Source of the DNA: Marsupella aquatica
Taxonomy: Eukaryota; Plantae; Marchantiophyta
DNA: 64,000 nt
Assembly: GCA_973895155.1 (NCBI GenBank)
Contig: OZ316894.1
Coordinates: 14,647,680-14,711,679 of the forward strand
Direction: 5' to 3'
The notes below the pieces were generated by a model that made no database searches, was not told the origin of the DNA, and saw nothing but the letters and a program-made list of their open reading frames with translations. The first letter of the stretch is position 1. The number at the start of each line of letters is the position of its first letter. Positions 33,355 through 60,432 of this stretch are shown piece after piece. A program made the translations under genes and the position numbers.

Positions 33355-33382
33355 CTCCGTGACAGGAAACTGGAAATAGTAA
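33355..33382 (+). repeat. Left subterminal inverted repeat CTCCGTGACAGGAAACTGGAAATAGTAA
   Basis: 27/28 match to the reverse complement of 54406-54433; extra ACAGGAAA units follow. Confidence 0.9.
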
Positions 33383-33903
33383 CAGGAAACAGGAAAACAT
33401 AACAGTAAAAGAAGACGGGGTTATACTCTGAACATTTGCCATCCATCAATAAAAATAGGGTTCAAGAGAACAGTTATAAAACGAAGTTCAAAAGTAAAGC
33501 CTGAGAAAAATGGCTCCATGTATTAGTAGCGCCTGGAGCTACTACAAAAAGTGGTGTCACAAAATCCAAAACATCCAAGAGGTCGGGTAAGAACAAACTA
33601 ATCCCCAAGACACTCATTGTCATTGACATACAACTCGGTCTATACTAAACAAAGTCCGAGAAACAAATCCGACTAGTGAGTGTCATTGTGGAATAAAAGC
33701 TATGCAAGGTGACGATACCTCTTACAACTTTAAACTCCAGAATATGTAGAGATGTCGCGAACAGTGAATTGACTTAACAACTAAAAAGCTGTATCCTACA
33801 AACTGAACATCCCGAACAAACAAAATCCTATCTCCTTTGTTCTTAATAGCAATAGCGCCGGGCGCTATCTATCACGAGAGTGTACAAAAAGACTTCCTAA
33901 AGA

Positions 33904-34374
33904 TCAGGATGTCGATGATCCACACTCATCATCGAGTCCTGCATTGAACCGATCTTCATCTTGACGAAATCCATCCTCCCGCTCATCAAAAAAATGCGGC
34001 CCTGGAAGGCAACTCCTAAGCTTGCAATTCGGTATGTTCAAATCAGAGAATCCAACTCGCCCAGTCCACTGTTGAATGTCCCTAAAAAATTGCGTCCTTC
34101 CAACCCCATAGTGATCAGAAGGGTCCGGATCGTGAATAGAGAAACGCTCTCGAATAGACCGGGGAGGCGATAAATGAGCAGAAGGAATAGATTTTGATCA
34201 GAAACTTATCCCCTCATCGGAGGCTAGCCACAATCGATTCCGCTCAGTTGATGTCTTAGAGTGAGTAGTATCTTCAATTGGGAAGTTTGCAAACAGATTG
34301 CCATCCGATGCTTTGCCCTCAAACTTTGCGAGGCGGGAAGTCCTCTCTTGTTTCACCTGCTTCCCTTTGTCCAT
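33904..34374 (-). pseudogene. Small conserved third gene of the MULE (unknown function), one internal stop
   Basis: MDKGKQV...ERFSIHDPDP...GRVGFSDLNIP matches MDHGTKV...ERFTIHWPLP...GRIDFQNTTIP at 59137-59567, in the same position relative to the MTase gene. Confidence 0.55.
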
Positions 34375-34863
34375 GGTCACTACACGAATGACTTTTAGTC
34401 TCTCAATGACTTTTAGTCTCTCAAAGGACTTGACACCGAAAAGCGCAAATGGCGAAGGCCTCCAAGAGCTCCTACAAATTGTCGAAAGGAGAGGGACAAA
34501 AGGGGAGAGTCTAAATGAAATGACTAACGATGCAGTTTCGAGAAAGGAAAAAGTTTCCATTTCAATCACGCATACAGAGAAAACGCCAGTCCATTGAGAT
34601 CAATGAGTACCACAAGCAATGACATTACGGAAGGGAAACGAACACTTGTATGGGTACTTCCGTTGAATTAAGTATTTCAGTACATTTGTCCTCCTGAAAG
34701 GATATACGGAACATCATACATTGCCCACCTTGTCTTAATCCAGCTTCACGTCATATGAATAATAAGTAGCGTCGGGAGCTACTATTTTGGAGGGGGGAAT
34801 TGACCAAACGGTGAAACTCTAATCTAATCTAATCTAGTGTAATCTAATCTAAGCTAATCAAAT

Positions 34864-37800
34864 CTAATCTGCACACTCTGACCCACTACTCTTCGATCTA
34901 TCTGTAGACTCTGCTTCATCGTCTACAAATTCATTCCATGCCATGTCGTCGACAAAAGGATGATGGATAAACTTCCGATCTGAACCTCATCTCAATCGCA
35001 AGCCTTTATTCTCCCAAGTCAGCGTTCTCCCACTCTCTTCTTTGCGAGCGGCATACTCGGCGTAGGAAGGCAATACAAATGGTTTCTCCGGGGTAATGAG
35101 AACCTTCCTTGAAAATTTCCTTTGTAGGTGAAACCTCTCGCGAATATTCCACTCGGACCTGCGAGTTGGTTAGAACATTAAGTACGTGGCTTTCATTGAT
35201 GTGTCTGAAACAAAACAAAGAAAACAAATAGTAAAGTAATGTGAAGGAGCTTACGGGCATTACTCCGAGGAATCTGAATCATCCGTTTCTCCTTCTGCAT
35301 TCCCCTCTTCCTTCTTCTCCTCTACATTATCTACATCTTCACCACCATCCACATCACCAACATCGGCTTCTTCTTCTTCGGAATCAAAATTAAGAACATA
35401 ACGAACTTTGTCCTTAACTTTTTTCCCCTGGTCTTTGCTCAGACCAGCGGCACTCACTTCTTTGGGGAGAAGAAGATCATTGAATGTCTTTTCAACAATG
35501 GACACAAATTCCTTGCGATTTTCAATCCCAAGAATGAAATGGCCACAGAAGTCACCCGCAACAAATGTGCTCCCAGAACCAACCGTCCAATCCATAACAA
35601 TATCTCCCGGACGCGTAATTAACTCAAGGACAGACTGCATGAAGCCGACAGGCAGACGAGCATTCCCAGCAAATGCACCTTCAGGAGAAGGATCATTCTT
35701 GAGACTTTGCAATCCAATGAGATTTGTGATTGAAGGGTCTTCAGTTACAGACAAAGGCTTGAACTTTACATCCTTTGGAACCCTGACTTTCGATGTAACC
35801 CGACTGAAGATGTTAAGTCTTAAGGTGAAAACCTGTGAATTGAGCAAGAAAAATGAGATATATAACAAGGGATATGGGTAGCGCCTGGCGCTACCAAAAA
35901 GCTAGACGGAAAATAAAGACTTTAACCCTAAACTCAATACCGTGAAATTGAATTTATGACTAGCGCCAAGCGCTAGCCAAAAAGAAAATCAACGATGAGG
36001 ATAATTACCTGACAATCGCTTCTGGCCATGTACATTGGGACGCCCATTACAACGTTGAGTGTTTTCAGGCATTGGAACTTCTGGGACTCTTGGCTTGCGG
36101 AAATAACTTGGGAGATCTGGTCGTACTCCCCAGTGTGCAAAATTGCTAACAATCCATCATCGGCTCGAAATGGGTCCATGGCCTGGAAAAAGGAACCTAC
36201 AATTTGGTGATCCGGGACATTCCACTTTGGCGACTTCCGGTGAAGCAAAGAAGGTCTTAGCCCCATTGGTAAATACACAAACCCCGCATCTACCCCAAAC
36301 GCTCTTAACTTCCCTCCCCTTACAACGCCTTTCTCGCAGAGACCAAGTGACACTAAGTCTTTCCCCCACTTTTCAACAGTTGTCACCCATGCGGGTTTGG
36401 TCTCATTTGTAAACACAGATTCAAAAAAGTCCATAACACTGGACTCAACAAACTTATGGCGGCTAACCTTTGAATTGAATCGACCAACTTCTCGTTGGAC
36501 CCCAGTGGACGCAATCGAACCAAGATCGTGGTTCTTCTTCTTCTTTTTCCTTGTGCTTGTGGCATCAACAGGACGAGATACGTTGGCATTGGTTGGAGGA
36601 GTTTGTTCTTCCGAGGCGTTAGCAGCCTCCATGTTTGCTTCGGAGAGCTCTCGGGTGATGGTCGTCTTTGCATCTTGCGTTTCTTCTCCCTCTGATTTTC
36701 TTCCCCCTGTAACAAGTATGAATAGAAATTAATTAAGGAAAATATACCAGCGCCTGGCGCTAGCCATCCAGAGTATCCATAAATTGTAACAGAATTATGA
36801 GTATCTATCTAACATTTCAAAGTAGCGCTTGGCGCTAACCAAAACTATGAAAAAAACCGGAAGAACAATAAGTTGAACATCTTACGTTTTCATCCAGATC
36901 GTGTCGACGGGCTATTCAATCCTGTATCCATTTTTACTTTTGCACGTGGCTTTTGGCTTCGGTCAACATGTGTGACTTCTGTCTCGCAAATTTTTTGAAG
37001 CTCAACCACTGAAGCTTCCACATCTCCCACTAAACCTTCCTTCATTCTGACAACAATTTGCAAGGAACTAGAGATTTGGACAATTTCAGAAAGGAGTCTT
37101 TCTCAAATTCATCAAAAGGTGTATCCCACTTATCAATATCGAGGTACCACGGACAGTTTGCTCTCTCCCACTCAGAAATGTCACGCGGAGGGTTGGCTCC
37201 ATCTGTCGGATACATACTGTAAACCTCGCTGAATGCATCCCCATCCATGACGGACCACTTCTGGAATGCAGGAGGGTAAGCCCAAAAGTATTCAGGCGAA
37301 ACGCTCTCCATGGACATGAAGAACCGATAAAGATATCTCTTTGCCCGCTTCTGGTTTCGTGTAGTGAAATCTTCTTTCTCCCCATACTTTGAAGCCCACA
37401 TTGTGTTGAAGAACTTGGCCTTCACAGTATCTCCGTAAATTCTGAAATCATTACAAACGCTCTGGACCAAACCATCAAAAGTATCTACTCCTCCTGTCAC
37501 GAGTCGTTCGGGAGGCATGATCGATTCAACTTGCCTGAGAGCAGTCTGCAACATCCCTATTGCAATTCCTTCTATCCAACTCCACATGTGCCATGTATGA
37601 CACCATTGCTTCACAGGTTCGTCATTCACACTAGGTGGATGGAAAAATTGTTTTCAAAGTTCAGGTGTGCAATGTGCCACAAGGAGAGTAGAACACAACT
37701 TCGGATCCAAAGCGGAGACAGCAGTGAAGAGTCAAGCACGATCCATTGTACAAACAACGGACTCTGCTTTCCGTTCCCGCTTGTTCTTTTCTGTCAGAGT

Positions 37801-39025
37801 GTACATTTCTGCACAAGTTGACAGAAAATCATTGAATTCAGGACTCAGGAGAGGAGTAATCTTTGAGGTCTTCACGCTCCATTCCTTCGTGGCCTCCTTC
37901 ATCATCGCTGCGTGACGCTTAGCGACCTCCTCTTTTGACCATGGCCGTCCTTAAGAGTTTGCGGTTGCCATGTCCATTTTGAATTGGAGAGAGTATGACT
38001 TGATCTTGTTCTCACACAAGATGTAAACAAGAGCCTCCAAAGGCATCTTCTTGGTATACCAAGAGCCTTTCCTTGTCTTCGCTCGAATTGCCTCAAATCA
38101 TTTGAAGCTTCCTGTGTCAATGATTGCCTTATAATAATCAAGGTCATGGGACAGAATCCGATTGATTCGATCTGCATCCAAGATCCATGACGGTTCTACC
38201 ACGGCTTGTCCCAATCTGAAACCAAACGGAAATCATCAGCGCCAGGCGCTAGCCAAACATCGACAAAAGTATTCATTATTTTTTACATTCAATGAAAGAA
38301 AATGATGGAACTTACTGATTGACTATGTGCATTGCAGCTTCAATCTCGATGAGAGAGCCTCGATCTCCCTTGAATACAGTGCAAAGCACACGAGGATGGT
38401 ACTTGATATTTTCGGGGTTTTCGTCCGTGATCTGTAACCAGGAATAGAGACGATGATTCTCGTCAAATACACAAAACATCTTGTCTTTTAAGACGAGAAA
38501 ATCGGGATCCATTTCGCAGCCCGCTTCAAATTTCTCATTCTGGGAAACCCATACAGCATCCCAACTCTCACGAATTTTGGGTGTGCAGAATTGGATAACC
38601 CCTTCAGAATCAGCGGGTTGAACATAGAACCGCATCCCTATGGAGGAGTTGTAACCGGAACTCCGAAATGAATCTTTGAGCTTCTCGATCGAAGCGTTCT
38701 CCTTCTGCAAAGTCCGGACGACTTCCATGTTGACTAAGCGGCAAAGCGGTATATAGGGGGGATCCTTAGGCTCTCCTCTAAAATCAGTCCCAAACGACAT
38801 CGCATGTTTCGCGATCACATCACCCATCGACAGAGCCCCTTCACTTCCGTCCTCCATCACGAAATCGCTGAAATTCTCCATGGCTCCTTGTTTCTGCTTT
38901 GGAACTGTCTGCCCAATATGTCAAAGTGACTGCGATGCAATTGAGCGTGTAACTCTTCGAGTGTAAACAGAACCAGAGAATGAAGTCTCGGATGTCTCAG
39001 AATTACCGGGAGAAGTATTGTCCAT
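34864..39025 (-). pseudogene. Five-exon ParB/Srx-like plus N4/N6 DNA-methyltransferase-like fusion gene, copy 2
   Basis: Exons about 39025-38316, 38215-36886, 36706-36009, 35832-35264 and 35158-34864. IPLCRLVNMEVVRTL...VFDENHRL; GVDAGFVYLPMG; ELITRPGDIVMDWTVGSGSTFVA...ILGIENRKEFV. Intron positions match copy 1. Confidence 0.85.
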
Positions 39026-39678
39026 CTCTGGATAAAGAGTAGAAGGCGGTAAGGTTTGGAATGTTCTCAACCAATCGTAGAGGTCTGCAACGTTATCCTG
39101 CGACTGGATAGATGAGCTCCACGTCGCAAACAGACAACACGGAGCACGTTCTTTCCCGAAAGACAGAGAGGACAGCGAATCTTAAAACATGATCAGACCT
39201 ATCGAATTGGCCTTTCACATGTAAAAGATCCATCAAAGACCGTCGATCAACTTAAATATTTACTTTTCATGATGAAAAGAAACAGCAAAAAGAGCGACGA
39301 CACCAACAAGAAAGAGACACATGTCACATGTTCTAAACGGTCATGATCAATAGAACCAAAATTTTCTAAATGACGTCTCTAAATCTTTGCCACTTTAGGG
39401 ATAAAACGGTCACTAAGGTATGAAGTTACCATTATAAATATCCGTTGAGTCACAACAACGGACAAGCATGTATAATAGCGCCCGGCGCTATTATAGAAAT
39501 TACACCTAAATCACCATAAATTTTCATACATTTCTATAATCACGCTCGGAGATATTAAGGGCCCTTACCATAAAATAAGCCCACAACATAATAGCACCCG
39601 ATGCTATTATTAAATCATTTCTGAAATGTCATTTAACTCCTTAAATACAACAATGGTCGTAAATTTCTTTGCTTTTTG

Positions 39679-42600
39679 TGTTGAGCATAGACGACATTCG
39701 CAACGGCAAGCCCATGAACCATCCAACGCACAATAGTCAACACAGAGAGATACATGGTTCACCTCCACATGAGGCTACGTCCACGGGAACACACAAGAGC
39801 TTTACTGCACTCTAGGCCGACCGGCCATACCAAGCATCCATAGCACAAGCTCTCCCTATCTCTCAACTAGCTCCGTAACAATGAGCCTAAGTTCCACCAA
39901 CGTCTGGCATCAGCCCTGGCTATATGCACACCAGCACTACCGCTAACATTAGCTAAGTCCTAACCCGAGTTAGACTAACTGTGGTTAGTTCATGAGTCAC
40001 AAGACTAGAGCAATATCTAACAAACTCCCCCTTGACTCTTGTCTTGGGGACTAGACTAAATGCTACTATATGGAATCCTCAACGGGAAGTTCTAGACAAT
40101 CACCAAACCAGGTCTCCCCCTAAAAACCACAAGGGTTAACTAGAACTAAGCCGTAGCCTAACAGGAATGAGTAATCCATATACAAATAGTCACACATTGC
40201 TAAATAACTCTACTTGCACTACAACTGCAAAACCTGCAAAGTAGCACGGTGTCTTGAGCAACTCTCCACAGGAATCACTTTGGTAAAGGCATCAGCGGGA
40301 TTGAGCTTTCCATCAATCTTGACTAGCTCAAAAGTTTTATCAGACACTGCTTGCCTGATAAAATGGTACCTGATATCAATGTGCTTCACCCTACTATCCA
40401 TCACCTAGTTAGTAGCCAAGTGAAGAGCACTCTGACTATCACAGTTTAGAGTCATTTTGCCATGCTCTAAACCCATCTCCGCGATCAACTTGTCCAACCA
40501 AATTATTTCTTTTGCTGTTGCAATATACTCTGCTTCTGTAGTAGACTGAGATATGCACTTCTGCAAGGTAGATTTCCAACTAATACATCCTCCTCCAAGA
40601 GTGTATACAAACCCAGTTGTAGACCTCCTTGTATCCAGACAGCCTCCATAGTCAGAATTTACATAGCCAACTAACGTTCTATCTGATCTATTATCAAATA
40701 GTAATCCATAGTCTTGTGTTCCCTTCAGATCCTTGAGAATCCACTTCACAGCTTCCCAATGTACCTTCCCTGGATTTGACATGAATCTGTTGACCTAGCC
40801 CATCGCTAGGGCCAAGTCAGGCCTAGTACAAGTCATCAAATATATCAGACTGCCTACTACCTTCTCATAAGGAATCTTAGCCATCAAACCTTTCTCCACA
40901 GCATCCGTAGGAGAGAAAGCCGATGATAACTTAAAATGTGAAGCTAAAGGAATACTCACTGACTTACAGTTCTCCATGTTGAATCGTGCAAGTACTTTCC
41001 TTGCATACTGGCCTTGACTCAAGCACAACTGTCCAGTCTCAGAGTTCCTAAAAATCTCCATCCCTAAGATCCTCTTGGCTTTACCAAGATCCTTCATCCT
41101 GAATTTAGCACTCAATTTTGCCTTGAGATTGTCAACCTCAGATTGATCTTTAGTCACAATAAGCATGTCATCCACATAGATTACCAGAATGATGAAACCA
41201 AATACATCATTCTTGACTGATTTTGTATACACACAAGGATCATACACCATCCTTGTAAAACCTTGAGCAAGCATGAAATCATCCACCACTTGCTGACCTC
41301 TTGGAAGCTCCACCAGCTCCCATGTCTTGTTGTCACTCAAAGATTGTAACTCCCTTTGCATTGCTACATTCCACTCATGCTTCTGCTCTGAAGCACAAGC
41401 CTCATTGTACGAAGAAGGCTCTCCTTCTTCCAAGATCAAAGCCATGTCATCATCATCAGGTGCAATGTCAATATCATCTAGCTTAGATGAGTCTGCCCAT
41501 TGACTATACCTGGTAGGAGCTCTAGTAGAACGACTAGAAGTTTTTCTAGTAGATGACTCAGGCTGATTTGTTGTTGCTGCTGGTTAAATTTGAGGTACCC
41601 CAACAACAATCTGCTCCTCTTGTTCCATCACAGGAACCAGCTCCAAGCCCAGAGCTTCTCCATCTCTCCTGTCATGAACTGCATCATGACTAACCTCCCC
41701 TTCAACCCGGTCCGGGATGAGAGATTTCCCCTTGTCAGTATGGGAGTCTTGAGAACTCTCCCCCTCCTTTGATGATCTGGATTCATTAAAGGACACATCT
41801 CGACTGACAATTAGCTTACAGGGTACTGGATCCCATAACCTATAACCCTTCACACTTTTTTGATAGCCAAGGAAAATGCACTTCTTTGACTTGGACTCCA
41901 GCTTGGATCGCAGCTGGGAAGGTGTAAGCACATAAGCATCACATCCAAAAATCCTCAGATGTGAGTAATCTGCTGGACGCCCGTACCTCATTTCAAATGG
42001 CGTCTTGAATCCAATAGAACTGGATGGAGAAAAATTTACCAAATAAGCTGCAGTGTTGACAGCTTCAGCCCAAAACTCATGTGGTAAGCATGATTGACTC
42101 AATATACTCCTCAAGCGGTCCAATAGTGTTCGGTTGAGTCTCTCAAAAACACCATTCTACTGAGGAGTATAACTTGTTGTGAGACGGCGGGTAATCCCCT
42201 GCTCCTTACAATATGTCACGCGATTGACATGGGTCTTAACACCAAAAACGTCACTATGGGTGCCAAAACCATCTCCTTGTACCTGAGGATCACGAAGGGA
42301 TGTTGTGAATGCCGGTAAACACCAGTTTATGCCCTTAACACCAGACTATCATAGCAAGACTCTATCACACATCACCCAAGCTCAATCCCAAGGAACCGAG
42401 GTTGGGGATCAGATCTGTGCTCATGATAGTTCTGGTGAGAAGGGGTCTTCATATCGGGCCCGTACACACAGGGCCTAGCGCTACGGTGCGCATAGGTCTA
42501 TACATATGCTTACTGTCATAGGTATGTTTCTATTCTGCCGCCGGAATGTACCCATAAACCAGTGACTCCTGACTGATTCCCGGCTTAGGGACTTCTAAGC

Positions 42601-45600
42601 CATTGCCCCACCACTCTGCCATTCCACTCTCAACAATCAGAGCTATGACAGTCCTCACCCAGCCCGCTTCAATGCACCCGGTACACCTCTCAGTGGCGCT
42701 ACTAGTTCCATCATACACTCAGATTGCCTCACACACACACACATCCATGAGAGAAATGAGGCCTGAGAGGAAAACTCAATTAGATTCAACGATGTGCACA
42801 ATAGTTCACTAAGAACACTTGATCCGAACAATAGGCCCGAAGGCTGTCTACTCCAGATTGCAGCGTGCTTGCCCCGCAAGCCCCATGCTTGCCATGCAAG
42901 CTCAATCCTGAACCTGAGCCCGGCTCACTCCAGATTGCGACGGCATATTGGACTCAAACCAATCCCGTACTTGCCTTGCAAACTCAATCCTGAACTCAAC
43001 CTCCTTCACTGCACTTCATTCTTGGGGGCACATACAGATCTCACACCTCCAATTCAGAACGTCAAGTTACGCATACATAGTTGACTCGACTTCAAAGCTG
43101 GTACCAGGCCTAATGGCGATCTACCCCAGACTGCAATGAGGCCCGGCCTCACGCTTGCCCTGCAAGCTCCGCTCTGGCCATAGATCCCTTAGTGCTCTCC
43201 ACCAGACAAAGGCCGGGACTCCCCATGGATCACGTAGCCTTGCCAGACTGAACTGTAAATGCTCCTCCTGCTGCCCCTCAATCAGTGTCTCAGCCTCCCT
43301 AATGTGCTCACCACAAATCAAATTGACATCCTCCCCACAGTTTACAATCACCAATACATCACCTATCACCAAGGCTCTGTATCGGGGGAAAAGAACCCAG
43401 TTGTGCTACTCACTAGAAAGAGCCACAATCCAGTTCGCAAACCTAGCAACCCGTTGCTGTGAAGCTTGGCTGATTACTCCCTGAGTAATAGCACAACCAA
43501 GCTCTCCCCAACACGCAGCGTCCAAGTCCAGCCTTGCTTGCACAGAGCTCCTCCCTGCTGCTCAGTCTAAGTGAGATCACACAACTGAAGTCCCCCCCTC
43601 TGCCTCTACCGGAGGGATGCTCTATATACTCTCTCATTGAGCCCAAATGGGTGGATGCTACGCTGCTGGAGCCCCATCCCAGCCCTAATAGAGCCGCCAC
43701 TATCTCTAACTACTGAACCCTAACTCGCAACTTTATTTCTATCTCGAATTGGCTATGTACTTCGGATTCGGCCCTCCTCCATAGTTTTTGCGAGCTTGCG
43801 CCTCCTCTCCCGATTTCTCTATTTAACCATTTTCTGCGTGGATAGCAACGTTGGAAGCGGCTTGAGCTCCTCTTTCCAACGAGGTCAATTATAGCCGATT
43901 TGGTCAAATACACAGAGAGTTATGCCCCCGTAACCGAGAGGGGGTACTCACTGTTGCGCTAACCCGAGTTACATAGCTAACCCGAGTTCGGCTAACCTAG
44001 CTATCCTATCTAACCCGAGTAGAGCTAACCCGTGGTCTCGGGTTAGGCCGTCACCCGCTATCCGCTATCCACTATCCTAGCCTAAGCTGAGCCCGAACCC
44101 GAGCTTACCTATGCTAACCTGACCCCGAGTTAAGTCTAACCCGGGATCAATCTAATCCGAACCCGGGTTAAGCCTAAGCTGAAGCCGTGCTTACCTAAGC
44201 TAAGCTGAAGCCGTGCTTACCTGAGCTAAGCTGAAGCCGTGCTGACCTAAGCTAAGCTGAAGCCGTGCTGACCTGAGCTAAGCTGAAGCCGTGCTCACAT
44301 AAGCTAAGCCGTGGTCGAGCTTGGGTTAACCCGAAACTGAAGCCGAATCCGCTAATTCCGGCCACAAGTTAACCCGTCACACTAATCAGGCCGTATCTTT
44401 CTTAATACACCTCCGTTTCCTGAGTGTTTTATATCGATTTTACTCGCCTTGACCAGATCTTTCCAATGCTCTTTACAGATCCGGATTTGGTGACATATTG
44501 AAAGAGATATGGTCGCCGACCACCTGCGACATAGCTTTTATTTCCCTACTCTTAACGCCATGATTGCCCTTATTCTTGCCATCTTGCTAATTGTTATGCA
44601 ATATCAATAGCTACTCCTTGCATACAGCAACCTACTTAATCAGATTACAAAATAAGGACCATGTCATTGGCGTCACACAATACATTCTAAATTCCCCGGA
44701 ACTGTATTCACCGCCGTTATCCGATCAAAGATATCTCATCTTATTACCAGTCTGATTCTCAACTTGGGCTTTCCACTCCTTAAAAGTGACAAAAACATCA
44801 GACTTACTGTGTAGAAAGTATATCCACACATACCTTGAGTAATCGTCAATGAACGTGACATAGTATAACCGTCCAGAATGTGAGGGAGTAGAGGCTGGAC
44901 CTCACATATCACTATGTACATACTCAAGTACCTCCTTGCTGGTGTGAGTTCCAACTCCGAAGGGTTTCCTGTGCTGCTTTCCTAGCACATAGTACTCACA
45001 AAATTCCAACTTACAAGATTGCAAATTAAAAAGTACTCCTTTCTTCTAAAGAATAGCCAAACCTTTTTCACTCATGTGGCCCAAACAGAAGTGCCATAGC
45101 CGGGCCGTCTCCTCATGAGATGAGGTTATATTGGCTTCATCACAAACTACACTGCCCTCCAAAACGTATAGATTGCAATGTCTCTTTCCTTTCAATACAA
45201 CTTTAGTACCAGTTGAAACCTGAAGGACACCATTAGCAAAACTCCACTAATGGTCATTTGCTTCTAAAACTCCAAGTGAAATGAGATTTTTCATCATGCT
45301 GGGAATATGTCTCACATTCCTCAACGTTCTCATAGCACCATCAAACATCTGAAATCTTACAGATCCAAGTCCAACAACTTGACATGGGATTCCATTTCCC
45401 ATCAACACTGACCCATTGGAAACCGTGTAAGAACTGAAACAATCTCTCTTAGAGCAAATGTGAAAAATACTTGCACTATCTAGAATCTAGTCATCACTAC
45501 CTGGATTTGACACTACGTTGAGAGCATAACCTTGACATCACAATATGTCATCATCATTGAGTAAATTTACCTCATGCAAGCTCGATGCCGCGTTAGCAGA

Positions 45601-47592
45601 TGCAGTAGGGACCTTTACTCGACAATCCATTTTCATGTGGCCAGGCTTGCCACAATTCCAACATGCAAGAGGCTTCCTCTCTTGCGATTTCCCTCTGGAT
45701 TTAGATCTCCCCTGTGATGTAGATCTAAACCTATTCGGCCCATTTGTACGTTGCGCTACTCTCCCACGGTTCACGTTCAGCGTAGTGCCAGAAGAAGATG
45801 CTGTCTGTGATTGACCCAACTTCTTCTGAGCATCATTAGACAATAATGAGCTCACCACCGCATTATACGAAATGGACTTCAGATCTCTATACAAGAGCAC
45901 CTGTTTCAAGCCCTAATATGACGGCGGTAAGGAGCTTAGCAGAAGCAAGGCCTTATCCTCATCTTCAACTCCTTTTCCTAGGTTTGATAGATCCACCGCT
46001 AGACTGTCAAATTCATCCAGGTGATCCTGCATCTTGCTCCCTTCCTTGAGCCTGAGGCTCATCAAGAGAGACTTCTTGTACAGCCGGTCTGACGCATCTT
46101 TCCGGTAGAAGCTCTTAGAGCCTTGAACAATGACGCGCAATCCGCATAATCATCCAGCTGCTTGATGATGTGCGGCTTGAGATATAGCATCACTGCATTG
46201 ACAACAATCACCTGCTCCTGTCTCCACTGCTTCTCTGAAATATCCTCCTCTCCATCATACTACTCTCGCGATGAAAGCAAATGAGCTAAGCCCATGGCCC
46301 GTAGAACACCCTTCACTTGCTTCTCCCATAGCAAGTAAGTAGTTAGTACGACCATCGTACTTCTCCACCTCAAACTTCACTCCTCCGAATCTAGCCATCT
46401 CCCTCTTCTTCCCTACTACGGATAACTCTGGTAGTAGTACAGCTTCCTCCACTGCACGTCGCATCGGTGATCGTGGTAAGTGAGGGAGCCGGGTGTGTGT
46501 ATACACACACAAGACTCCTTTAACCCCTTTAAAACAAAAAAATAACCCCAAAATAAAATTTGAGTTCTCACCTTAAAAAACCGCTATTTACACTAAGGAA
46601 AAGATGAGTGCCAACGGTCCAAAGTTGCCAAATTTTACCGGTTAGGTTTGCAAGCTCCGTAGTGGGAAAAACTTTCCGTCGTGTCACACTCACTCCGTGT
46701 CAAGTGCCAATCCCGGGCTCAAAACGACCGCCTTGCCGCGATCAAAACATTGAGTCGTAGCACTTCGCGTTTCTTCCACCGAGTCGTATGTCACGAAGAG
46801 AAACCCGGTTCAGATGTGAACAAGCTCCATAGCTTGTAAAAAAACCTGAACGCCTCCGTCACTTGTCACGTCGCACTCGGTAACAACTCGGTAGCAATCC
46901 AGCTACCGAAACGACCAGCTTGCTTCAACCTTCAACTTGAGCTATAATGTGTGATCCCTCCCGCACCGCACAGCTCACATCGTTGAAAAACGCAAACTCT
47001 GGTCTCTCCCCCGAAAAGCTGTCGAATATGAATAAACCCTGAATGATGCAAACTTCAATTCCTCCGCACCACTGATATCGATCAGCAAGTTCTAACCACC
47101 GTTAGAAAGTCCTCTCACTAACCTATCCTCATAGCCACACACATTCGAGTTTCATGCGACGAAACTCTAAATGTACCATCAACAATGAACGCTGGAAAAA
47201 CCTGTCACAAAAAACCCCGTCACCTCCCAGGCATGCTTTGATACCACTTGTTGAGCATAGACGATATTCGCAACGGCAAGCCCATGAACCATCCAACGCA
47301 CAATAGTTGACACAGAGAGATATGTGGTTCACCTCCACATGAGGCTACGTCCACGGGAACACACAAGAGCTTTACTGCACTCTAGGCCGACCAGCCATAC
47401 CAAGCATCCACAGCACAAGCTCTCCCTATCTCTCAACTAGCTCCGTAACAATGAGCCTAAGTTCCACCAGGGTCTGGCATCAGCCCTGGCTATATGCACA
47501 CCAGCACTACCGCTAACATTAGCTAAGTCCTAACCCGAGTTAGACTAACTGTGGTTAGCTCATGAGTCACAAGACTAGAGCAATATCTAACA
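39679..47592 (-). mobile_element. Full-length but decayed Ty1/Copia (Tork/Tnt1-like) element nested in the MULE intergenic region
   Basis: 344-bp LTRs at 39679-40022 and 47249-47592 (about 10 mismatches by eye); TSD TTTTG; PBS TGGTATCAAAGC; PPT GGGGGAGTT; gag CWNCGKPGH, integrase, RT YVDDML with internal deletion, RNase H. Confidence 0.95.
42214..44677 (-). mobile_element. Solo LTR (2464 bp, probably Ty3/Gypsy) nested in the Copia integrase
   Basis: TG...CA ends; 5-bp TSD CAATA; internal ~23-bp tandem repeat 44170-44310; inverted near-copy at 51948-54378. Confidence 0.88.
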
Positions 47593-47970
47593 TTTTGGAC
47601 ACGTAAATATGTATTATTAATAATAGCGCCAAGCGCTATCAATGTTGTGGGTAAATATATATCTCATCTTGTTGTATTTTTGGGTTCATCTCCACATATT
47701 GTGTGGCATGAAAAAAGAGATTTTTGCTAGCACTCGACGCTACTAATATCCATTGCTGAAGATGCCGTTAAACTAACGGAAACATTTTTATTCCAACGGT
47801 CATCCGCTGCCATTCTTTGGTCACTTTTCCATTGCATCAACGGTAATTAAATTGGAATTCGACTTGTCGTATGGTGGTTTCTTTGTTGAAGTTTCTTAGA
47901 AGCGGTGAAAGAAGAAACTAAAACTATCACGACACTCTCATTTTACCATTGTGGTCGATGATATTCCGCA

Positions 47971-50900
47971 ATGCAGCGTGTAATTAGAGTAAGTTGTTCG
48001 GCGACAGGTGAGGTGATTACCGTACTTGTGACCAATCGACCAGGTACTCAATGCGTTAGTGAGAATTATCTTTCCACAAGATTTGATGTCCAAAGGAAAG
48101 ATATTGATAATTTAGGTACATTTGCTGGTTGTACAGCTCATTTCCATTACAATCAAGGAGAGAAATTCTGGGAGTTGCATATTGGTGTTGATTACTCTCT
48201 ATACCTCAAAGGAAAAGATGATGTTCGTGTTAAATTACAGAAGGTAATTGCACCCAGGGAAGTCATCGATCTCACATCTGAAGGCGAGGACTCATTCCTT
48301 GGATCTCCTTTTTCGATGGATGTTGGAAACATTAAGAGAGAAGAATCGGTTCCAGTACATCAGGGGAGCTCATCGAAGGAACGGGTTCCTCCAGTTTTTC
48401 CAGGATTGAACAAAACAATTAGTGGATCTGATACACTTCTTTTAGCTCTGCCTGTTACTGTTGTCTATAGGCGAAGCGCGTTAGATGCACTTTTGAAATC
48501 ATCTGGACAAAGTGAGCTTTCTCGCTTTGTTAAATCGGAGGTTTTCACGCACGAGCAAGTGGAATTGCTTCCCAGAAGTTATAATGGCATTGTCATATTT
48601 GAGCTTCCACCTGTTGATTGTGTCGGTTCAATAGGAAAGCGTCTCCTTAACATGGACCGGTCAAAGGATTGCTATCTATGGACTAGAATTTTCCCCACTT
48701 CAACCAAGGTCTTACCTAAGAAGATGTGGGAGTTTGGCAAGGTTAGTTGTAGCGGGTCACTAGAATGTCGAAACAATTCATGCGAGTTTTATATTAGAAC
48801 CAATGGTAGGAATTGTTCATCTTGGGAAGGGACCCCTAAGTTAGGAGGTCAACATTGTCCAGGAAAGTTGATTGATGCAGGAGGGATTGTTTGTCGTTAT
48901 TGTCTGCAGCTCCCATTTTGTGTGGACTCTTGCCCCGCAAAAATGTTTTGCTTGATTCGGTGATAGTGCAACATATGTCACGCCTCGCAATCCACATGGG
49001 TGTACATAATCATCCATGTCGAAAGATTTGGTCTAGAAGTTCAGAGAAAATAGCGGTCGAGGAGATTCGAAAAGAGCACTTGAAGAATCCTTCTTCCGCG
49101 CCTTGTGTTGTAAAAAATGCAGTCACTGGATCTTTGAAGGATGCACTAGATGAATCTGTTCATGACATTTCAAAGATGGAAGAGACTGAGATTTGGCAGT
49201 CACTTATGCTTGTTTCCACTCCACAGAAATTCTCTGCCTTGTTTAAGAGCGTCCGAAAAGATCAGGCTGGTCATGGAGATCTTGAATATCTGGTTCGAAT
49301 GCAGAAGAATGTGAGGTTTCCATTTGTTCAAAGGTATCTTCTTCCGGGGCAAGGCTGTAAGGAAGACCGTGCTCATATTTTCAAAATGACAATCAAAGGT
49401 CATGGATCCGGAGTCGATCTACTTTGACAGATGAAAAAAGGTGGGCCACTTGAAGGAGCATGGTGAGTTTTGATGTCATGCATCGAATGTCTAAAGAATG
49501 GAGCACTTTCAGTGCCCACGTCTATGACCACAACTATCGAGTGTTATGTACAATATTTACGTGCAAGCTGAAAGCAGAGGACACTGAATCTCTTGAGAAA
49601 GCTTGGAGATTGATGATTGAGGTCGCTTCAGAAAATGGGTTACATGATGTTCAAATTCACGAATTCATGGCTGACAATGCTCATGCGGGATGGCTTGCGG
49701 TGAGAAATGTTTTCTTTGGGGGCCATCCAAATCCAGAGAAGGAGAGATCAGACGCTTTTCATTTTTACCAATCTTTGCATCGCCATTCCATCGAAGGAGT
49801 GTTGGAAGACAAACGTGCAGAGCATCGAACCCTCTGGGATAAGCTCAGAAATGCATCAACTTTTGTTGAAGCCTATAGAATCTCCAGAGAGATTGATTTA
49901 TGGTGGAGATCCGGAAATTGCGTTCCTGGAAAGCTTCGGATGCTGCAAGGATGGATCTCTTGGTGGGTTGTAAGATGGCGGCAGTGGGGAAATTTTATCA
50001 GACTTGTGAGTATGACATTGACATGGCCTTTTCATTTTTCAATATCTCATATACTTCTAAACTAGCGCCGAGCGCTACTATTAAGACTCTATTTTGCTTA
50101 ATTCTCTTATCCTTTTTGACAACGCCCGACGCTACTTTTAATTTGTAAGTATTGATAAATAATATCATCACGTCTTCCAAAGTAATATTCGAGATTTGAC
50201 CAACCCTCGCCGTCCTGCAGAGCAAAAGTGCACAAGGAGGGATGATTCCAAATTGCACAGGATCTGAGGCAGTTCATGGTATCATGAAAGCTTGGCAAGG
50301 GAAGAAAACTATAGGTTTATTTGAGGGGTGCAAAACTGACCACAATCGAGCAATCTCCCAAATTGCCGCCTATACTGTCTATCGTGATGGGTTACATAGA
50401 GGTACAGGTCCTATGGTTTTTGAACTAGCTTTCCGTTTTGCAGATCAGGCTGGGTCCCCTCGATTGTTCGAAGAGGCTTCTAATTTTCTACTAGCTAATG
50501 CGGCGGAATTTGATTTGGAGAGGAGTTCTCCATTGAACGATGATTTTGTAACCAAATCTGTCAAAAGAAAAGGTCCAGCGACAGGGAATGTCTCGGCACA
50601 AGACTCCCATCGTCATGACACTATTCTGATAACAACACCAAATACACGGGGTTTGAAACGGAGAAATCTGAACTCTACTCAGTTTTCTCATATTCCACTT
50701 AGTACTCCTCAAACACCAATCGATTTGACTGGGAGTGAAGAAGACCCGGGTGACATGCAGGATGCACCTCCTTCTGGTCGAGGTGGAGCATCTTCAATAT
50801 TACCAGAAGTCTTTTTTAACCAAAATCCAGTCGTCCCTGACACGTCGCTTTTGGAGATGGACGTTGATCCCGGTTCTTGGCATCTTCGTCGAATTTTAAG

Positions 50901-51726
50901 ACTTGGGCCCGGCCCACAGTGTAACGGGACATTGTCAGGGAGATGCAATCATGATGAGTGTCAAAATCGTATTAAGAAGGTTGGATATCCTTCCAATGCT
51001 GGTGTCATCGGAGTTGTTGTCAAAGGACATCGCCTATTCAGAGGAGAACCTCATGCAGAGTTTGTGTGGTTCTGCCCCAACGGCAATTGTTGGAAGAGTC
51101 GCCCACGTCGAGGTATAGCAAACCTGCCTCCTTATCCAGTGTCCTTGCCAATACTGAAAGGAACAAATATGTCAAACTTGGAGATAAGTTTCCTTGAAGA
51201 ACAGGGTGTTGTAATCCTCTCACGAGACCAAAGCGTGGCCTCCAGCCCTACTCCTTTTGATTTGAGAATCAATGTTGATGTTTTTCCTGAGAAGATCAAT
51301 ATGGCACAAATCAACATCCGTTCTTGAACTAGGAACGGGCGCCCAATGAACCCCAGATCAAATCTTACTCAGGAATATCATAGAAGGATTGAATCTGCTG
51401 CTAAGGAAACAATGACTCTCATCACAAAATTGGACTTCTCCTCAGGGAACTCTTATGGGAAACGATTTCGCATCCAAACACACGCTCATTTGAGGACGGC
51501 AAACACTTACTGGGTGCAGATTTGCATATTCCCATGCTGCTCTTGTGAGGATTTCTTTTGCCGGCATTCTCGAGGAAGACCTTTCATGCCTTGTAAGCAT
51601 TTGTACTAGGTTTACAAAATGGTCTTTAAGCTGGATCCATTGGATTCAGTGTTACCAAGCCAACCAATTCTTATTATCGGTGAACTCCAGTACATCTTAG
51701 GAATGAAGAATACGCATGGTTTTTAG
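47971..51726 (+). pseudogene. Mutator-like transposase: GCM/WRKY-like Zn domain, DDE core, Cys-rich insert, C-terminal SWIM
   Basis: CSGSLECRNNSC...CRYC...HMGVHNHP; FDVMH (D1), FMADNA (D2), DAFH (C/DxxH), intron 50006-50220, GSEAVH (E); CSCEDF...PCKHLY SWIM. Stops and frameshifts near 48955, 49425, 51325 and 51607. Confidence 0.85.
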
Positions 51727-51947
51727 GAATTCTGACCATTCTAGTAGACGTTGAACGGGTATTTAGTCAATGATGTTTTGTAACGGTAACAAACATTTGG
51801 GTAGCACTCGGCGCTAGTAAACGTGTCTTCCGACAATTGTTGTTTTTCCCATCATATTGGACTTCATGTTGAAATTGACCTCATTGGTTTTGTAGAGAAT
51901 TATGCCATGTTTTGTGGATGATAGTACCAATTCTCCTATTTTGTTCC

Positions 51948-54378
51948 TGTGACGCCAATGACATGGTCCTTATTTTGTAATCTGATTAAGTAGGTTGCTG
52001 TATGCAAGGAGTAGCTATTGATATTACATAACAATTAGCAAGATGGCAAGAATAAGGGCAATCATGGCATTAAGAGTAGGGAAATAAAAACTATGTCGCG
52101 GGTGGTCGACGACCATATCTCTTTCAATATGTCACCAAATCCGGATCTGTAAAGAGCATTGGAAAGATCTGGTCAAGGCGAGTAAAATCGATATAAAACA
52201 CTCGGGAAACGGAGGTGTATTAAGAGAGATACGGCCTGATTAGTGTGACAGGTTAACTTATGGCCGGAATTAGCGGATTCGGCTTCAGTTTCGGGTTAAC
52301 CCAAGCTCGACCACGGCTTAGCTTATGTGAGCACGGCTTCAGCTTAGCTCAGGTGAGCACGGCTTCAGCTTAGCTCAGGTGAGCACGGCTTCAGCTTAGC
52401 TTAGGTCAGCACAGCTTCAGCTTAGGCTTAACCTAGGTTCGGATTAGATTGAACTCGGGTTAGCCTAAACTCGGGCTCAGGTTAGCATAGGTAAGCTCGG
52501 GTTCGGGCTCAGCTTAGGCTAGGTTAGCGGATAGCGGGTAGCGGCCTAACCCGAGACCACGGGTTAGCTCTACTCGGGTTAGATAGGATAGCTAGGTTAG
52601 CCGAACTCGGGTTAGCTATGTAACTCGGGTTAACGCAGCAGTGAGTACCCCCTCTCGGTTGCGGGGGCATAACTCTCTGTGTATTTGACCAAATCGGCTA
52701 TAATTGACCTCGTTGGAAAGAGGAGCTCAAGCCGCTTCCAACGCTGCTATCCACGCAGCAAATGGTTGAATACAGAAATCGGGAGAGGAGGCGTAAGCTC
52801 GCGAAAACCATGGAGGAGGGCCAAATCCGAAGTACATAGCCAATTCGAGATAGAAATAAAGCTGCGAGTTAGGGTTCAGTAGTTAGAGATAGTGGCGGCT
52901 CTGTTAGGGCTGGGATGGGGCTCCAGCAGCATAGTACCCAGCCATTTGGGCTCAGTATGAGAGTATATAGAGCAGCCCCCCGGTAGAGATGGGGGGGGGG
53001 ACTTCAGTTGTGTGATCTCACTTAGACTGAGCAGCAGGGAGGAGCTCTGTGCAAGCAAGGCTGGACTTGGACGCTGCGTGTTGGGGAGAGCTTGGTTGTG
53101 CTATTACTCAGGGAGTAATCAGCCAAGCTTCACAGCAACGGGTTGCTAGGTTTGCGAGCTGGATTGTGGCTCTTTCTAGTGAGTAGCACAACTGGGTTCT
53201 TTTCCCCCGATACAGAGCCTTGGTGATAGGTGATGTATTGGTGATTGTAAACTGTGGGGAGGATGTCAATTTGATTTGTGGTGAGCACATTAGGGAGGCT
53301 GAGACACTGATTGAGGGGCAGCAGGAGGAGCATTTACAGTTCAGTCTGGCAAGGCTACGTGATCCATGGGGAGTCCCGGCCTTTGTCTGGTGGAGAGCAC
53401 TAAGGGATCTATGGCCAGAGCGGAGCTTGCAGGGCAAGCGTGAGGCCGGGCCTCATTGCAGTCTGGGGTAGATCGCCATTAGGCCTGGTACCAGCTTTGA
53501 AGTCGAGTCAACTATGTATGCGTAACTTGACGTTCTGAATTGGAGGTGTGAGATCTGTATGTGCCCCCAAGAATGAAGTGCAGTGAAGGAGGTTGAGTTC
53601 AGGATTGAGTTTGCAAGGCAAGTACGGGATTGGTTTGAGTCCAATATGCCGTCGCAATCTGGAGTGAGCCGGGCTCAGGTTCAGGATTGAGCTTGCATGG
53701 CAAGCATGGGGCTTGCGGGGCAAGCACGCTGCAATCTGGAGTAGACAGCCTTCGGGCCTATTGTTCGGATCAAGTGTTCTTAGTGAACTATTGTGCACAT
53801 CGTTGAATCTAATTGAGTTTTCCTCTCAGGCCTCATTTCTCTCATGGATGTGTGTGTGTGTGAGGCAATCTGAGTGTATGATGGAACTAGCAGCGCCACT
53901 GAGAGGTGTACCGGGTGCATTGAAGCGGGCTGGGTGAGGACTGTCATAGCTCTGATTGTTGAGAGTGGAATGGCAGAGTGGTGGGGCAATGGCTTAGAAG
54001 TCCCTAAGCCGGGAATCAGTCAGGAGTCACTGGTTTATGGGTACATTCCGGCGGCGGAATAGAAACATACCTATGACAGTAAGCATATGTATAGACCTAT
54101 GCGCACCGTAGCGCTAGGCCCTGTGTGTACGGGCCCGATATGAAGACCCCTTCTCACCAGAACTATCATGAGCGCAGATCTGATCCCCAACCTCGGTTCC
54201 TTGGGATTGAGCTTGGGTGATGTGTGACGGAGTCTTGTTATGATAGTCTGGTGTTAAGGGCATAAACTGGTTTTTACCGGCATTCACAACATCCCTTCGT
54301 GATCCTCAGGTACAAGGAGATGGTTTTGGCACCCATAGTGACGTTTTTGGTGTTAAGACCCATGTCAATCGCGTGACA
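51948..54378 (+). mobile_element. Solo LTR (2431 bp), same family as 42214-44677, opposite orientation
   Basis: TGTGACG...CGTGACA ends; 5-bp TSD GTTCC; TATA-like GTATATAG near 52963. Confidence 0.88.
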
Positions 54379-54405
54379 GTTCCACTCTTTTTCCTGTTAT
54401 GATCA

Positions 54406-54433
54406 TTACTATTTCCTGTTTCCTGTCACGGAG
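54406..54433 (-). repeat. Right subterminal inverted repeat of the MULE
   Basis: TTACTATTTCCTGTTTCCTGTCACGGAG is the reverse complement of 33355-33382 with one mismatch. Confidence 0.9.
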
Positions 54434-55281: not shown

Positions 55282-55884
55282 TTGTTCATTCACCTACCGA
55301 TGTGGACTTGTCTTGCCTTGGGGGTCTGTGTAGCTTGCAAGGGGCACCTTCGTTGCAATCCTTACCCATTATCTAGAATATTGAAGGTAAGGTGAAAATT
55401 ATTGGCTTCACTCTTGTGCAGAAGCGTTGACCAATTTTCCACTCAGTTTGGGAGAAGAAAACATTGAAGGATGATAAGTAAGGAGTATGGAAGGGGAAGA
55501 GTTTTTCTCCATGGTTGAGGTTTTGCTTGCTTAAGAGTTGAAGTTGTTATGATGGTGTAGGACAAGTTAGAGTAGATAGGCTAATTTGAAGCCTTGTTTT
55601 TGATAGACTTGTTGGAGGGGTTGAGATGCAATCTTATACATACTACTTGGTGTTACTTGCTAGGAGGGTTGCTCGCTCAAGGTATTACGTAGAGGCATTT
55701 AAGCACCAGAGCACTTAGACGTGGGCGCTAAGTGTCTAGGTTGGGGTATTTATATAAGACAGGAAACCGGAAACCAGGAAACCCAAAACAAGAACCGATG
55801 ACAGGAAATAGGAAATAGGATACACAAAACTTCAACAAAGAATGCGGGAATTTTTTTTGGGATGAAGCAAGATCTTTCCTTGAA

Positions 55885-58580: not shown

Positions 58581-58794
58581 CGCAAGATCTTTGACATTTG
58601 AAACAGGTTTTTTAGAAGATTTGTGTCAAATCCAGGAAAAATGGTTGAGACCAAGAATAGCGCTAGACGCTTGTATTATAAACTTTTGGAAACTGTTTTC
58701 CCAGAAAGCATAGGGTCGCACTAGGCGCTGCCAAAACTAGTTTAGAAATCTTTGCTATATATCTACTCTATAACAACCAAATCAAAATATGGAT

Positions 58795-58932
58795 TGAGGA
58801 CATAGTTGTCCTCTTCTGAGCAATCTCTTTTGGTTGCTCTTTTCTTTGATTGCATTGTACTTTACTTTTTGTGGCAGCTCCTTTGACTTTCATGGTCCCG
58901 GAGCTTATAATACATTACCATTACCATTACCA
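58795..58932 (+). mobile_element. Family A LINE 3'-UTR-only insertion
   Basis: Matches the last ~140 bp of family A, including (TTACCA)x3. Confidence 0.9.
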
Positions 58933-59136
58933 TATGTTAGCGATTAGCAAATCGATCCAATGTCAGTCTCCCATCCATTACCACAAAATGAAAGGGCTAG
59001 TTCCAATCAACAAAAACTATTCTGGATTTTCTAGTCATAGAAGACATTGCCGTCTTAGTCTATCGGGAGATTCAAGAACATTGGGTGCCTCCGTCGGGCA
59101 AGTGAGCATACTAGCACCGGGCGCTAGTTCTCTCAA

Positions 59137-59567
59137 TCATGGACAAACCGCACTCATCATCAATGCCAACCTTAGATTGGGCTCTATCGGGAACAAAACC
59201 GTGCTCACGAGTGCTGATGCCAAGGATGGCATTCTCTCCACACCTCTTTGAGGGTCCTTGCCAGGAATGGTTGTATTTTGGAAATCAATCCTCCCTAGCT
59301 CCTCTTGGGTGCGAATGCCATCCTCATGAGTCGGGTTGTGGAGAGGAAGGGGCCAATGAATTGTAAATCTTTCCAAAAAATGCCTTGGTAAAGAATCTCT
59401 AAGCCATGGGATAAGCATCTCGCCAGGGCTAATAGCTTTGCCTGGAGGAAGGTTCAATGTGTTGGGAAGTCACTCGTCTCGCTCCACTCAGGCTGTTCAG
59501 TGATGGGCAGCAAACCCTCCTCCAAAATCATTTGAGACAAACTACGCACTTTGGTTCCATGATCCAT
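59137..59567 (-). pseudogene. Small third gene of MULE copy 3 (frameshifted)
   Basis: Motif similarity to and synteny with 33904-34374. Confidence 0.5.
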
Positions 59568-60106
59568 TTCAGGTTAGCGATGGCAATTTGAACACAAATG
59601 GAAGCGCATGAGAAGAACATGTAACCAAAATCCAAAACCGAGATTGCGGTATGAAATGCTCAGGATGAAACGCGAACGCAAGGATATGGGGAATGATAGA
59701 GACCGTGGTTGCCTCAAACGGTCCTTGGGACCAAATGTTCATAATGTCAGTTCAACGTTTGAAAGAGACAAAAGATCAACAAAAACTTTGTGACTGACGT
59801 CAGTCGATAAGAATGGGAATCTTTCCGTTAGTATTACAAAAATAAAGTGAGGATATTGAAGAGAGGAGAGTATTTGCTCTAGCGGAGTAAAGTTATAGTA
59901 GCGTTGGGCACTACTATAACATTCTAGGATATTAATGACAAAAATGAGAGTAAACATGATGCAATGACAATAATATGTATGAATAAAAATGAACTAAATT
60001 AATTTTACAAAATAGTTATAGCGCCCAAAGAGGATATTATCTGAGTACTCATTTGAGTAGCGCCCGGCGCTAGCATAACCTCAATATGTACCTATGAAGG
60101 TAAATA

Positions 60107-60420: not shown

Positions 60421-60432
60421 GGATGAGAATCT

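Follow-up and report, generated by a model that had tools for sequence, protein, structure and literature searches.

We analyzed a stretch of 64,000 nucleotides from the liverwort Marsupella aquatica (contig OZ316894.1, positions 14,647,680 to 14,711,679; referred to below as the window, position 1 being its first letter), in which a short palindrome recurs in the non-coding DNA of a transposon, element 2. This element contains only three reading frames, which belong to a gene combining ParB-like and beta-type methylase-like parts (the ParB-MTase-like gene), a transposase-like gene arranged head-to-head with it, and the small open reading frame 3 (ORF3). Two sister elements, numbered 3 and 1, are present in the same window. 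In the following list, mismatches are counted against the 15-mer TAGCGCC-N-GGCGCTA, LTR stands for long terminal repeat and LINE for long interspersed nuclear element; the palindromes and element 2 as a whole are given without strand.

33355..54433, element 2, two-gene DNA transposon resembling a Mutator-like element (MULE), inside a LINE, with terminal inverted repeats and nested inserts; about 10.7 kb without the inserts
33355..33396, plus strand, left terminal inverted repeat containing CAGGAAA repeats, a motif different from the palindrome
33527..33541, palindrome in the left terminal region, 1 mismatch
33853..33867, palindrome downstream of ORF3, exact
33907..34600, minus strand, ORF3, small broken reading frame, also present in element 3
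34767..34781, palindrome between the ParB-MTase-like stop and ORF3, 2 mismatches
34898..38881, minus strand, ParB-MTase-like gene, five exons (about 38881-38314, 38217-36886, 36709-36009, 35834-35266 and 35160-34898), with frameshifts and stops in exon 2
35879..35893, palindrome in intron 3, exact
35961..35975, palindrome in intron 3, 1 mismatch
36748..36762, palindrome in intron 2, 1 mismatch
36823..36837, palindrome in intron 2, 1 mismatch
38237..38251, palindrome in intron 1, 1 mismatch
39471..39495, perfect palindrome of 25 bp, the first of four sites in the spacer between the head-to-head genes
39592..39606, second site of that spacer, 3 mismatches, symmetry extending into the flanks
39679..47592, minus strand, nested copia-like LTR element with LTRs 97% alike, which splits the four-site cluster and holds the LTR at 42214-44677
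47624..47638, third spacer site, 1 mismatch
47728..47742, fourth spacer site, 3 mismatches
47971..51726, plus strand, transposase-like gene, broken, one intron at about 50007-50220
50063..50077, palindrome in the transposase intron, 1 mismatch
50120..50134, weaker palindrome in the transposase intron, 3 mismatches, absent from the earlier sequence-only reading
51802..51816, palindrome in the right terminal region, 2 mismatches
51948..54378, plus strand, solo LTR just inside the right end, with a 5-bp target duplication
54384..54433, minus strand, right terminal inverted repeat
55758..64000, minus strand, element 3, partial sister interrupted by LINEs; sites at 58658, 59112, 59899 and 60058
6520..13135, minus strand, element 1, diverged sister, gene at about 10770-6725

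Palindromic sites in the non-coding DNA of element 2

The palindrome TAGCGCC-N-GGCGCTA was found in the window four times exactly and 14 times with at most two mismatches (12 in element 2 and 2 in element 3), and 100 dinucleotide shuffles of the window gave a mean of 0.06 and a maximum of 1 match at the latter threshold. The sites at 39592, 47728, 50120, 58658 and 59899 show three mismatches. The consensus of the 19 sites, RVTAGCGCY-N-RGCGCTABY, consists of a 15-bp core in a 19-bp extended form. The sequence-only reading had given the motif as TAGCG-CCNGG-CGCTA at 14 positions in element 2 and at four in what it called copy 3: the motif is present at all of these positions, but the centre is looser and the site longer. 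In the flanks, a purine occurs two bases outside the 15-mer in all 38 half-sites, although this column was not used in picking the sites; the base beyond it is not T in 36/38 half-sites, and in 11 of the 19 sites the bases immediately outside the two ends of the core can pair with each other, as compared with 5.5 expected (P 0.007; P 0.001 for the total extension).

None of the 15 sites in element 2 overlaps an exon, although exons account for 65% of its 10.7 kb when the nested inserts are removed (P = 1.4e-7), which bears out the earlier statement that the sites are confined to introns and intergenic DNA. That three of the four introns of the ParB-MTase-like gene and the transposase intron carry sites was likewise correct: introns 1, 2, 3 and 4 have one, two, two and none, and the transposase intron has two (50063 and 50120), the splice junctions having been read from the sequence. 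The four sites in the head-to-head spacer, starting with the 25-bp perfect palindrome at 39471-39495, which is real as reported, are 116, 113 and 104 bp apart once the copia insert is removed. Taken together, the sites extend from 170 bp inside the left end of the element to about 200 bp inside its right end, and they are dispersed, without any tandem arrangement.

The nested LTR DNA of element 2 (10.3 kb) contains no site with at most two mismatches, in line with the previous description; it does however contain two matches with three mismatches (42469 and 54109), apparently at the equivalent place in two copies of one LTR. These LTRs (42214-44677 and 51948-54378) belong to one family, are 96% alike, have opposite orientations and contain short internal tandem repeats. 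In nine stretches of the window lying outside the family, no palindrome is repeated more than three times. That the sites form an independent miniature inverted-repeat transposable element was checked and ruled out, since the flanks of the 19 sites are unrelated (maximum identity 0.42, 95th percentile of the null 0.44) and there is no flanking duplication of more than one base.

Sites in sister elements and related loci

The proteins of element 3 are 54-61% identical to those of element 2, and both elements carry the palindrome in equivalent spacers, which otherwise show about 56% gapped identity and are near-random in alignment. Element 1 is more distant (29-54% protein identity) and has the same four introns; no transposase or ORF3 match was found for it in the window. 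Its sites, GCYAGCGA-NN-TCGCTRGC, occur at 6520, 7764 (intron 3), 11339, 11572, 11750 and 13122, that is, one downstream of the gene, one in intron 3 and four upstream, in places matching those in element 2. The region upstream of the element 1 gene also includes a 23-bp perfect palindrome (11085-11107) unrelated to the family site.

When the window was scanned for AGCG-Nx-CGCT with spacers of 2 to 11, only two classes emerged: spacer 5, whose 11 exact matches belong to elements 2 and 3, and spacer 4, whose four belong to element 1. The element 1 site is thus one base shorter. The two types are not mixed: all six sites of element 1 are of its own type, and the 17 of elements 2 and 3 (at most two mismatches to the 19-mer) are all of the other, a count based on three elements; 100 Markov shuffles gave at most one site of either type. 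Other copies of the element form a multicopy family in contigs of four public runs from two studies (388, 1014, 812 and 387 contigs), and these copies carry the consensus base at 34777. In two of the runs there is a contig form that parts from the window sequence at the intron 2 boundary and, after a further 34 letters, matches the palindrome of 39471; one reading is a diverged intron in which the site was kept. The palindromes are selected, family-specific cis sites, retained where the surrounding non-coding DNA has turned over.

A metagenome scan gave 385 pattern matches, from which 147 relatives were confirmed, 80 kept and 55 non-redundant clusters obtained, 29 of these loci being under 2.3 kb long. 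A de novo search identified three other palindromes in 15/55 loci, namely GGTGCC-N6-GGCACC (2/55), TCTCGG-NN-CCGAGA (12/55) and TTCGG-NN-CCGAA (1/55), the motifs having been defined partly on the loci counted; the corresponding figures in five shuffled sets of 55 were 0-1, 0 and 0-1 loci. The matched ParB exon, which was the sole exon mapped in this count, contains none of the 65 sites. Across families, 32 of 48 flank positions are complementary versus 17.7 expected. In a tree of 57 of the 58 locus and window domains plus four proteins (L080 was excluded because it was too short), the TCTCGG type occurs mostly in two clades, which have different symmetric flanks.

Many of the sites in the related loci lie within degenerate tandem repeats of about 74-140 bp, and dense arrays of up to 15-20 sites stand on either side of the first exon; amplification of the repeats is visible in L005, L027, L057 and L073. 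When repeat copies were gathered by their flanks alone, the core was found to be kept at 0.91-0.98, versus 0.72-0.86 for the flanks, in four of seven loci, and in two of these four the CpGs of the core were kept in 28/28 and 14/14 cases. In L073, where the half-site CCGAGAG is repeated 20 times, an 85-bp tandem array (89-770 and 2932-4175) has one half of the palindrome fixed and the other drifted, possibly a site in transition. Loci with a low GC content show AT-rich repeats and weaker palindromes near the ParB-like gene (L079, 7418-8410; L058, 5587-6133; L064, 12556-12811), those of L079 finding no support in the flank-only test.

The window also contains a LINE family whose copies are about 99% identical and end in short TACCAT-repeat tails (3749-5006, 11800-12967, 28231-29492 and 62560-63435), with fragments at 13246-13500 and 58794-58933, the stretch 13264-13500 being an inverted pair of LINE 3' ends. 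The near identity of the copies is that of a recent burst, and several of them are inserted in ParB-carrying elements. A tandem repeat at 14344-15063 consists of four copies, about 92% alike, of a unit of about 181 bp.

The ParB-like protein, the transposase and ORF3

The first exon of the ParB-MTase-like gene has 188 relatives at E <= 0.001. Ten of these were looked up, among which seven come from the liverwort Riccia sorocarpa and one from the fern Adiantum nelumboides, and the window proteins cluster with a Riccia protein in the tree (support 98/92). A word-index protein search gave no relative of the ParB-like exon among longer proteins, one relative of the catalytic exon and four of the transposase, and none of the 29 pattern matches in viral contigs was confirmed. 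Sequence profiles recognize only the C-terminal half: in Pfam the ParB N-domain gave no match and N6_N4_Mtase alone exceeded its cut-off, and searches of PDB sequences returned nothing significant.

An AlphaFold model was considered for the Riccia homologue P0033 (901 residues), which is about 32% identical to the window protein in the first exon. In this predicted model, residues 172-326 align with the N-domain of KorB (Z 7.3, root-mean-square deviation 2.9, 95 residues aligned), residues ~160-326 match KorB, PadC (6.3-6.9), Pnob8 (5.9-6.7) and sulfiredoxin, and KorB is the top match in a wide fold search. Residues 166-536 align along whole ParB/Noc chains, including both the N- and the DNA-binding domains (Z 7.6-8.4, root-mean-square deviation 6.7-7.6; best unrelated 5.6), an alignment that is suggestive for the DNA-binding part rather than proof. 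Foldseek placed ParB/Noc chains in nine of the top ten ranks for the 901-residue model, none under E 0.001. For the element protein, the prediction is a nucleotide-binding domain of the ParB type and, after it, a DNA-binding region similar to that of ParB. The CTP (cytidine triphosphate) motif of the family is DGNHR, with a near-invariant Asn at the end of the domain; the window copy reads DENHR and other copies have Gly. The canonical phosphate-binding motif GERRxR does not fit DGNHR. Language-model features of the first exon scored 0.96 for DUF3723 clusters and 0.93 for ParB_N, the latter at 11% of members; the look-alikes of positions 38312-38881 include fungal DUF3723 clusters and one cnidarian-dominated cluster, and a literature search biased toward open-access papers found none bringing together Starship, DUF3723 and ParB.

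The C-terminal half matches PF01555 (N6_N4_Mtase; E 1.2e-7, 32.3 bits versus a cut-off of 26.7), and the order typical of the beta class, with the catalytic motif before the S-adenosylmethionine-binding motif, was found in exons 3 and 4 and in the related protein P0153. The general form of the catalytic motif is (D/S/N)PP(Y/F), to which this half does not conform: it reads YLPMG in element 2, ALPTG in element 1, and YLPTG, DLPTG, DMPSG, DMPTG or DVPFG in the relatives. In beta-class methyltransferases such as MpDN4MT1, the motif is described as TSPPY (10.1101/2021.02.12.428880). Since the catalytic motif is altered, classical methyl transfer by this half is doubtful; in the earlier reading, the ParB-type N-terminal fold of the protein is supported. 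The last exon (34898-35160 in element 2, 60149-60418 and 6803-7069 in its sisters) encodes a short conserved tail, LP.YA..AAR ... P[FY]VDD.A, in all three elements and in the Riccia protein P0023. A shorter, unspliced form of the product is possible because the donor site overlaps an in-frame stop.

In the transposase-like gene, the acidic motifs FD and MAD and a SWIM-like Cys/His pattern at the C-terminus were read by eye. The protein matched no Pfam or PDB sequence, and its model is of low confidence (predicted local distance difference test score, pLDDT, 47), with a weak match to ISCth4 (rank 24, E 0.37). In a relative of the transposase, P0157, residues 1-82 of the model match ubiquitin-like folds; a PB1 domain occupies the N-terminal place in plant Mutator transposases. 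The CAGGAAA repeat at the ends of the element, which is separate from the palindrome, could serve the transposase. MULEs have a DDE transposase, often with a SWIM finger. Their target site duplications are of 8-11 bp (PMC6446971), and none was found at the ends of element 2, which was examined in one decayed copy; the earlier MULE label is plausible, but is backed neither by a Pfam match nor by a target duplication. As regards ORF3, it recurs in element 3 (~59138-59600), has no Pfam match, and found no counterpart in element 1 or in the related loci of at least 2.7 kb; it is disfavored as the protein binding the palindromes because element 1 has sites without any ORF3 match.

Candidate binders, proposed roles and known systems

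The symmetry of the site, its fixed spacing in each family, its retention wherever coding allows and the change of both halves between families point to a homodimeric binder encoded by the element, and both half-sites would be expected to change together, since a homodimeric binder predicts it. The palindromes are very probably genuine sites at which a protein binds the element. The strongest candidate for this protein is the ParB-like one, because the ends have a CAGGAAA repeat of their own, ORF3 has no matches in element 1 or in the related loci, and ParB-like genes and inverted repeats adjoin an unrelated transposase in red algae; it is probably the binder. In our preferred explanation, a ParB-like dimer encoded by the element would dock at the family-specific palindromes in introns, spacers and ends, spread along the element and keep it from silencing. 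It might load as a CTP-dependent clamp in the manner of ParB or KorB, and the catalytically altered methylase half might act as a reader or a shield. The outcome would be anti-silencing, as with VANC of Arabidopsis, which binds family-specific motifs in intron, intergenic and terminal DNA and removes methylation, according to PMC5735166; given that comparison, we put anti-silencing as the outcome of the binding at about an even chance, and the explanation as a whole, from docking to outcome, could equally well turn out to be right or wrong.

Several observations weigh against this explanation. The window sites themselves were probably methylated and decaying, since 21 of their 27 mismatches are C>T or G>A; CpG counts show no gradient or local protection around sites, and CpG retention in exons is flat near sites (0.64-0.72 at all distances). 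Among the other copies of intron 2, one of nine substitutions falls inside a site, as chance gives, the variation being sparse. None of the three palindromes tested is present in 40/55 related loci, and all seven loci of 9-20 kb lack them, having weaker or AT-rich repeats only; in the flank-only test, L079 and L025 gave a negative or mixed result and L049 a modest one. The 12 loci behind the flank count are not independent, because they belong mostly to two clades, and co-evolution is not proved by three elements and a handful of clades. On the protein side, the match in the DNA-binding domain was obtained with a homologue only, with a root-mean-square deviation near 7 Å and a Z score that helical bundles can reach by chance. 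Finally, a Mutator transposase can bind and activate its own family (10.64898/2026.08.24.746577), and operator-bound proteins of the ParB family are known as repressors (PMC11790492).

Two other explanations concern the outcome and the binder. The ParB-like protein might indeed be the binder and yet repress its own element, a KorB-like clamp, loaded at scattered sites as KorB is at its OB operators, dampening the two head-to-head promoters and limiting transposition. The spacer separating the two genes is occupied by four sites at even distances, and KorB, the top match in the fold search, is described as a CTP clamp that silences at long range, with an operator oligonucleotide containing TTTAGCGGCTAAA, which has the same TAGC/GCTA arms (PMC11790492). 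This shared four-base arm may be due to chance, however, no KorA-like partner was identified, and the rapid family-specific change of the sites and the tandem arrays of the relatives are in keeping with evasion of silencing by the host, an argument made for VANC in PMC10398659, so that we consider self-repression improbable. The binder might otherwise be the transposase, its N-terminal zinc-binding region recognizing the palindromes so as to activate its own family or organize the element, with some other role for the ParB-like gene. The transposase of AtMu1 does bind and activate motifs of its own family, but its peaks are at the terminal repeats (10.64898/2026.08.24.746577), and the ends have a separate motif here. 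Co-occurrence does not separate the two candidates here, because in three long locus clusters (L036, L071/L075 and L079) the ParB-like gene is arranged head-to-head with a gene of the same transposase family. What speaks against the transposase is that ParB-like genes adjoin inverted-repeat arrays together with an unrelated, Plavaka transposase (10.1101/2025.02.11.637652). Binding of the palindromes by the transposase has only a slim chance of being the right answer.

The spread of the sites along the whole element would also suit a ParB-like dimer that compacts or bridges it, joining the ends for excision and leaving the chromatin marks unaffected. DNA bridging is a property of ParB. Such a role would leave unexplained both the retained methylase-like half and the dense arrays of the relatives, and we hold it to be very unlikely. 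Hairpins in DNA or intron RNA, sites for host transcription factors or remnants of tiny repeats are very poor candidates too, for although independent recognition of half-sites does not predict the pairing of the first outer bases, a hairpin needs neither the fixed arm sequence nor the fixed spacer length seen within a family, a host factor's site would not change between sister elements of one genome, the unrelated flanks argue against tiny repeats, and the stretches outside the family lack palindromes repeated in this way.

Compared with known systems, the arrangement in element 2 resembles VANDAL/VANC in its layout: accessory genes carried by a transposon that is (here putatively) Mutator-like, short motifs placed in introns and in intergenic and terminal non-coding DNA with none in exons, motifs differing between families, and tandem arrays in several relatives (PMC5735166, PMC10398659). 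The motifs described for VANC, YAGTATTAY and AGTTGTCC/AGTTGTAC, differ however in being of 8-9 bp and non-palindromic, and the window sites, known here from sequence, are dispersed without tandem repeats. Homology with VANC is argued against because Pfam shows only N6_N4_Mtase in the protein, which consists of a ParB-like fold and a methylase-like half, and because the fold matches are of the ParB type.

The likeness to ParB/parS, Noc/NBS and KorB/OB lies in a palindromic site of similar size and in a predicted N-terminal ParB/Srx fold, behind which the model shows a helical region alignable with the DNA-binding domain (7bm8, 6sdk, 7bnk, 7ng0 and 8qa8); a G..R motif is conserved, and the near-invariant Asn stands at about the place of KorB N146 (PMC11790492). 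The protein here differs in having DGNHR instead of GERRxR, although KorB, whose own motif reads GARRYR, was reported to be still active (PMC11790492), and in its large helical insertions and its C-terminal methylase-like domain. Partition was rejected as a function: a Pfam search with 11 sequence pieces gave no ParA-like match, and the element, integrated among other transposons, is not a replicon to be segregated. The earlier term "parS-like" therefore fits only the recognition of the site and not partition, because no ParA-like gene was recognized and a chromosomal transposon has nothing to partition.

Among eukaryotes, fusions of ParB-HTH (helix-turn-helix) and methylase have been described in chlorophytes and chytrids (PMC4738411), and two algal genome papers have put forward ParB-like transposon genes as binding and modifying the element that carries them (PMC12477816, 10.1101/2025.02.11.637652), one of the two presenting VANDAL as the only transposons known to do so. 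PAG3, from a Plavaka element of the red alga Bostrychia, shares with the present protein an N-terminal domain resembling ParB, inverted repeats next to its gene, the proposal that it binds and modifies its own transposon, and an HHpred match, 7BNR, which is also among the top fold matches here; unlike element 2, it goes with an EnSpm/CACTA-type transposase, its ParB domain is fused to a 2-oxoglutarate oxygenase with the methylase on another gene, and its repeats are described as tandem arrays next to the gene (10.1101/2025.02.11.637652). The main-text passages of that paper contain no sequence for the motif, no placement in introns and no change from family to family. The accessory gene of Sola1-1_Ec32 from Ectocarpus (PMC12477816) is similar in that it encodes a ParB-like domain and an N4-cytosine/N6-adenine methylase in about 1100 amino acids on the strand opposite the transposase, with self-binding proposed; it differs in belonging to a brown alga and a Sola transposase and in having a methylase presented as predicted active, the string "palindrom" being absent from the main-text passages, which refer to Iyer et al. 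(2011) for similar proteins.

By the tests that were run, the system of element 2 is VANC-like in layout and ParB-like in predicted fold, and is a member of neither family. The idea of ParB-like transposon genes is already in print for algae, and the land-plant case is new in the literature found: a search that subscription papers mostly lay outside brought up neither a ParB-like gene in a land-plant transposon nor a treatment of the sites family by family. What the window offers is a set of defined sites that are kept out of exons, together with natural cognate pairs one spacer base apart in a single genome, and homologues in a liverwort and a fern are available alongside these sites. It is a tentative and, on balance, doubtful proposal that land-plant transposons carry a true ParB-type CTP clamp which loads at family-specific palindromes and slides through chromatin, its methylase-derived domain shielding or re-marking the DNA, and the part of it according to which protein and site change together in each family, here by one base in the spacer, is equally tentative. 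Were the clamp real, it would amount to a bacterial-style loading and spreading machine in plant chromatin, to a second, independently evolved anti-silencing system, and to a source of orthogonal site-specific chromatin tools.

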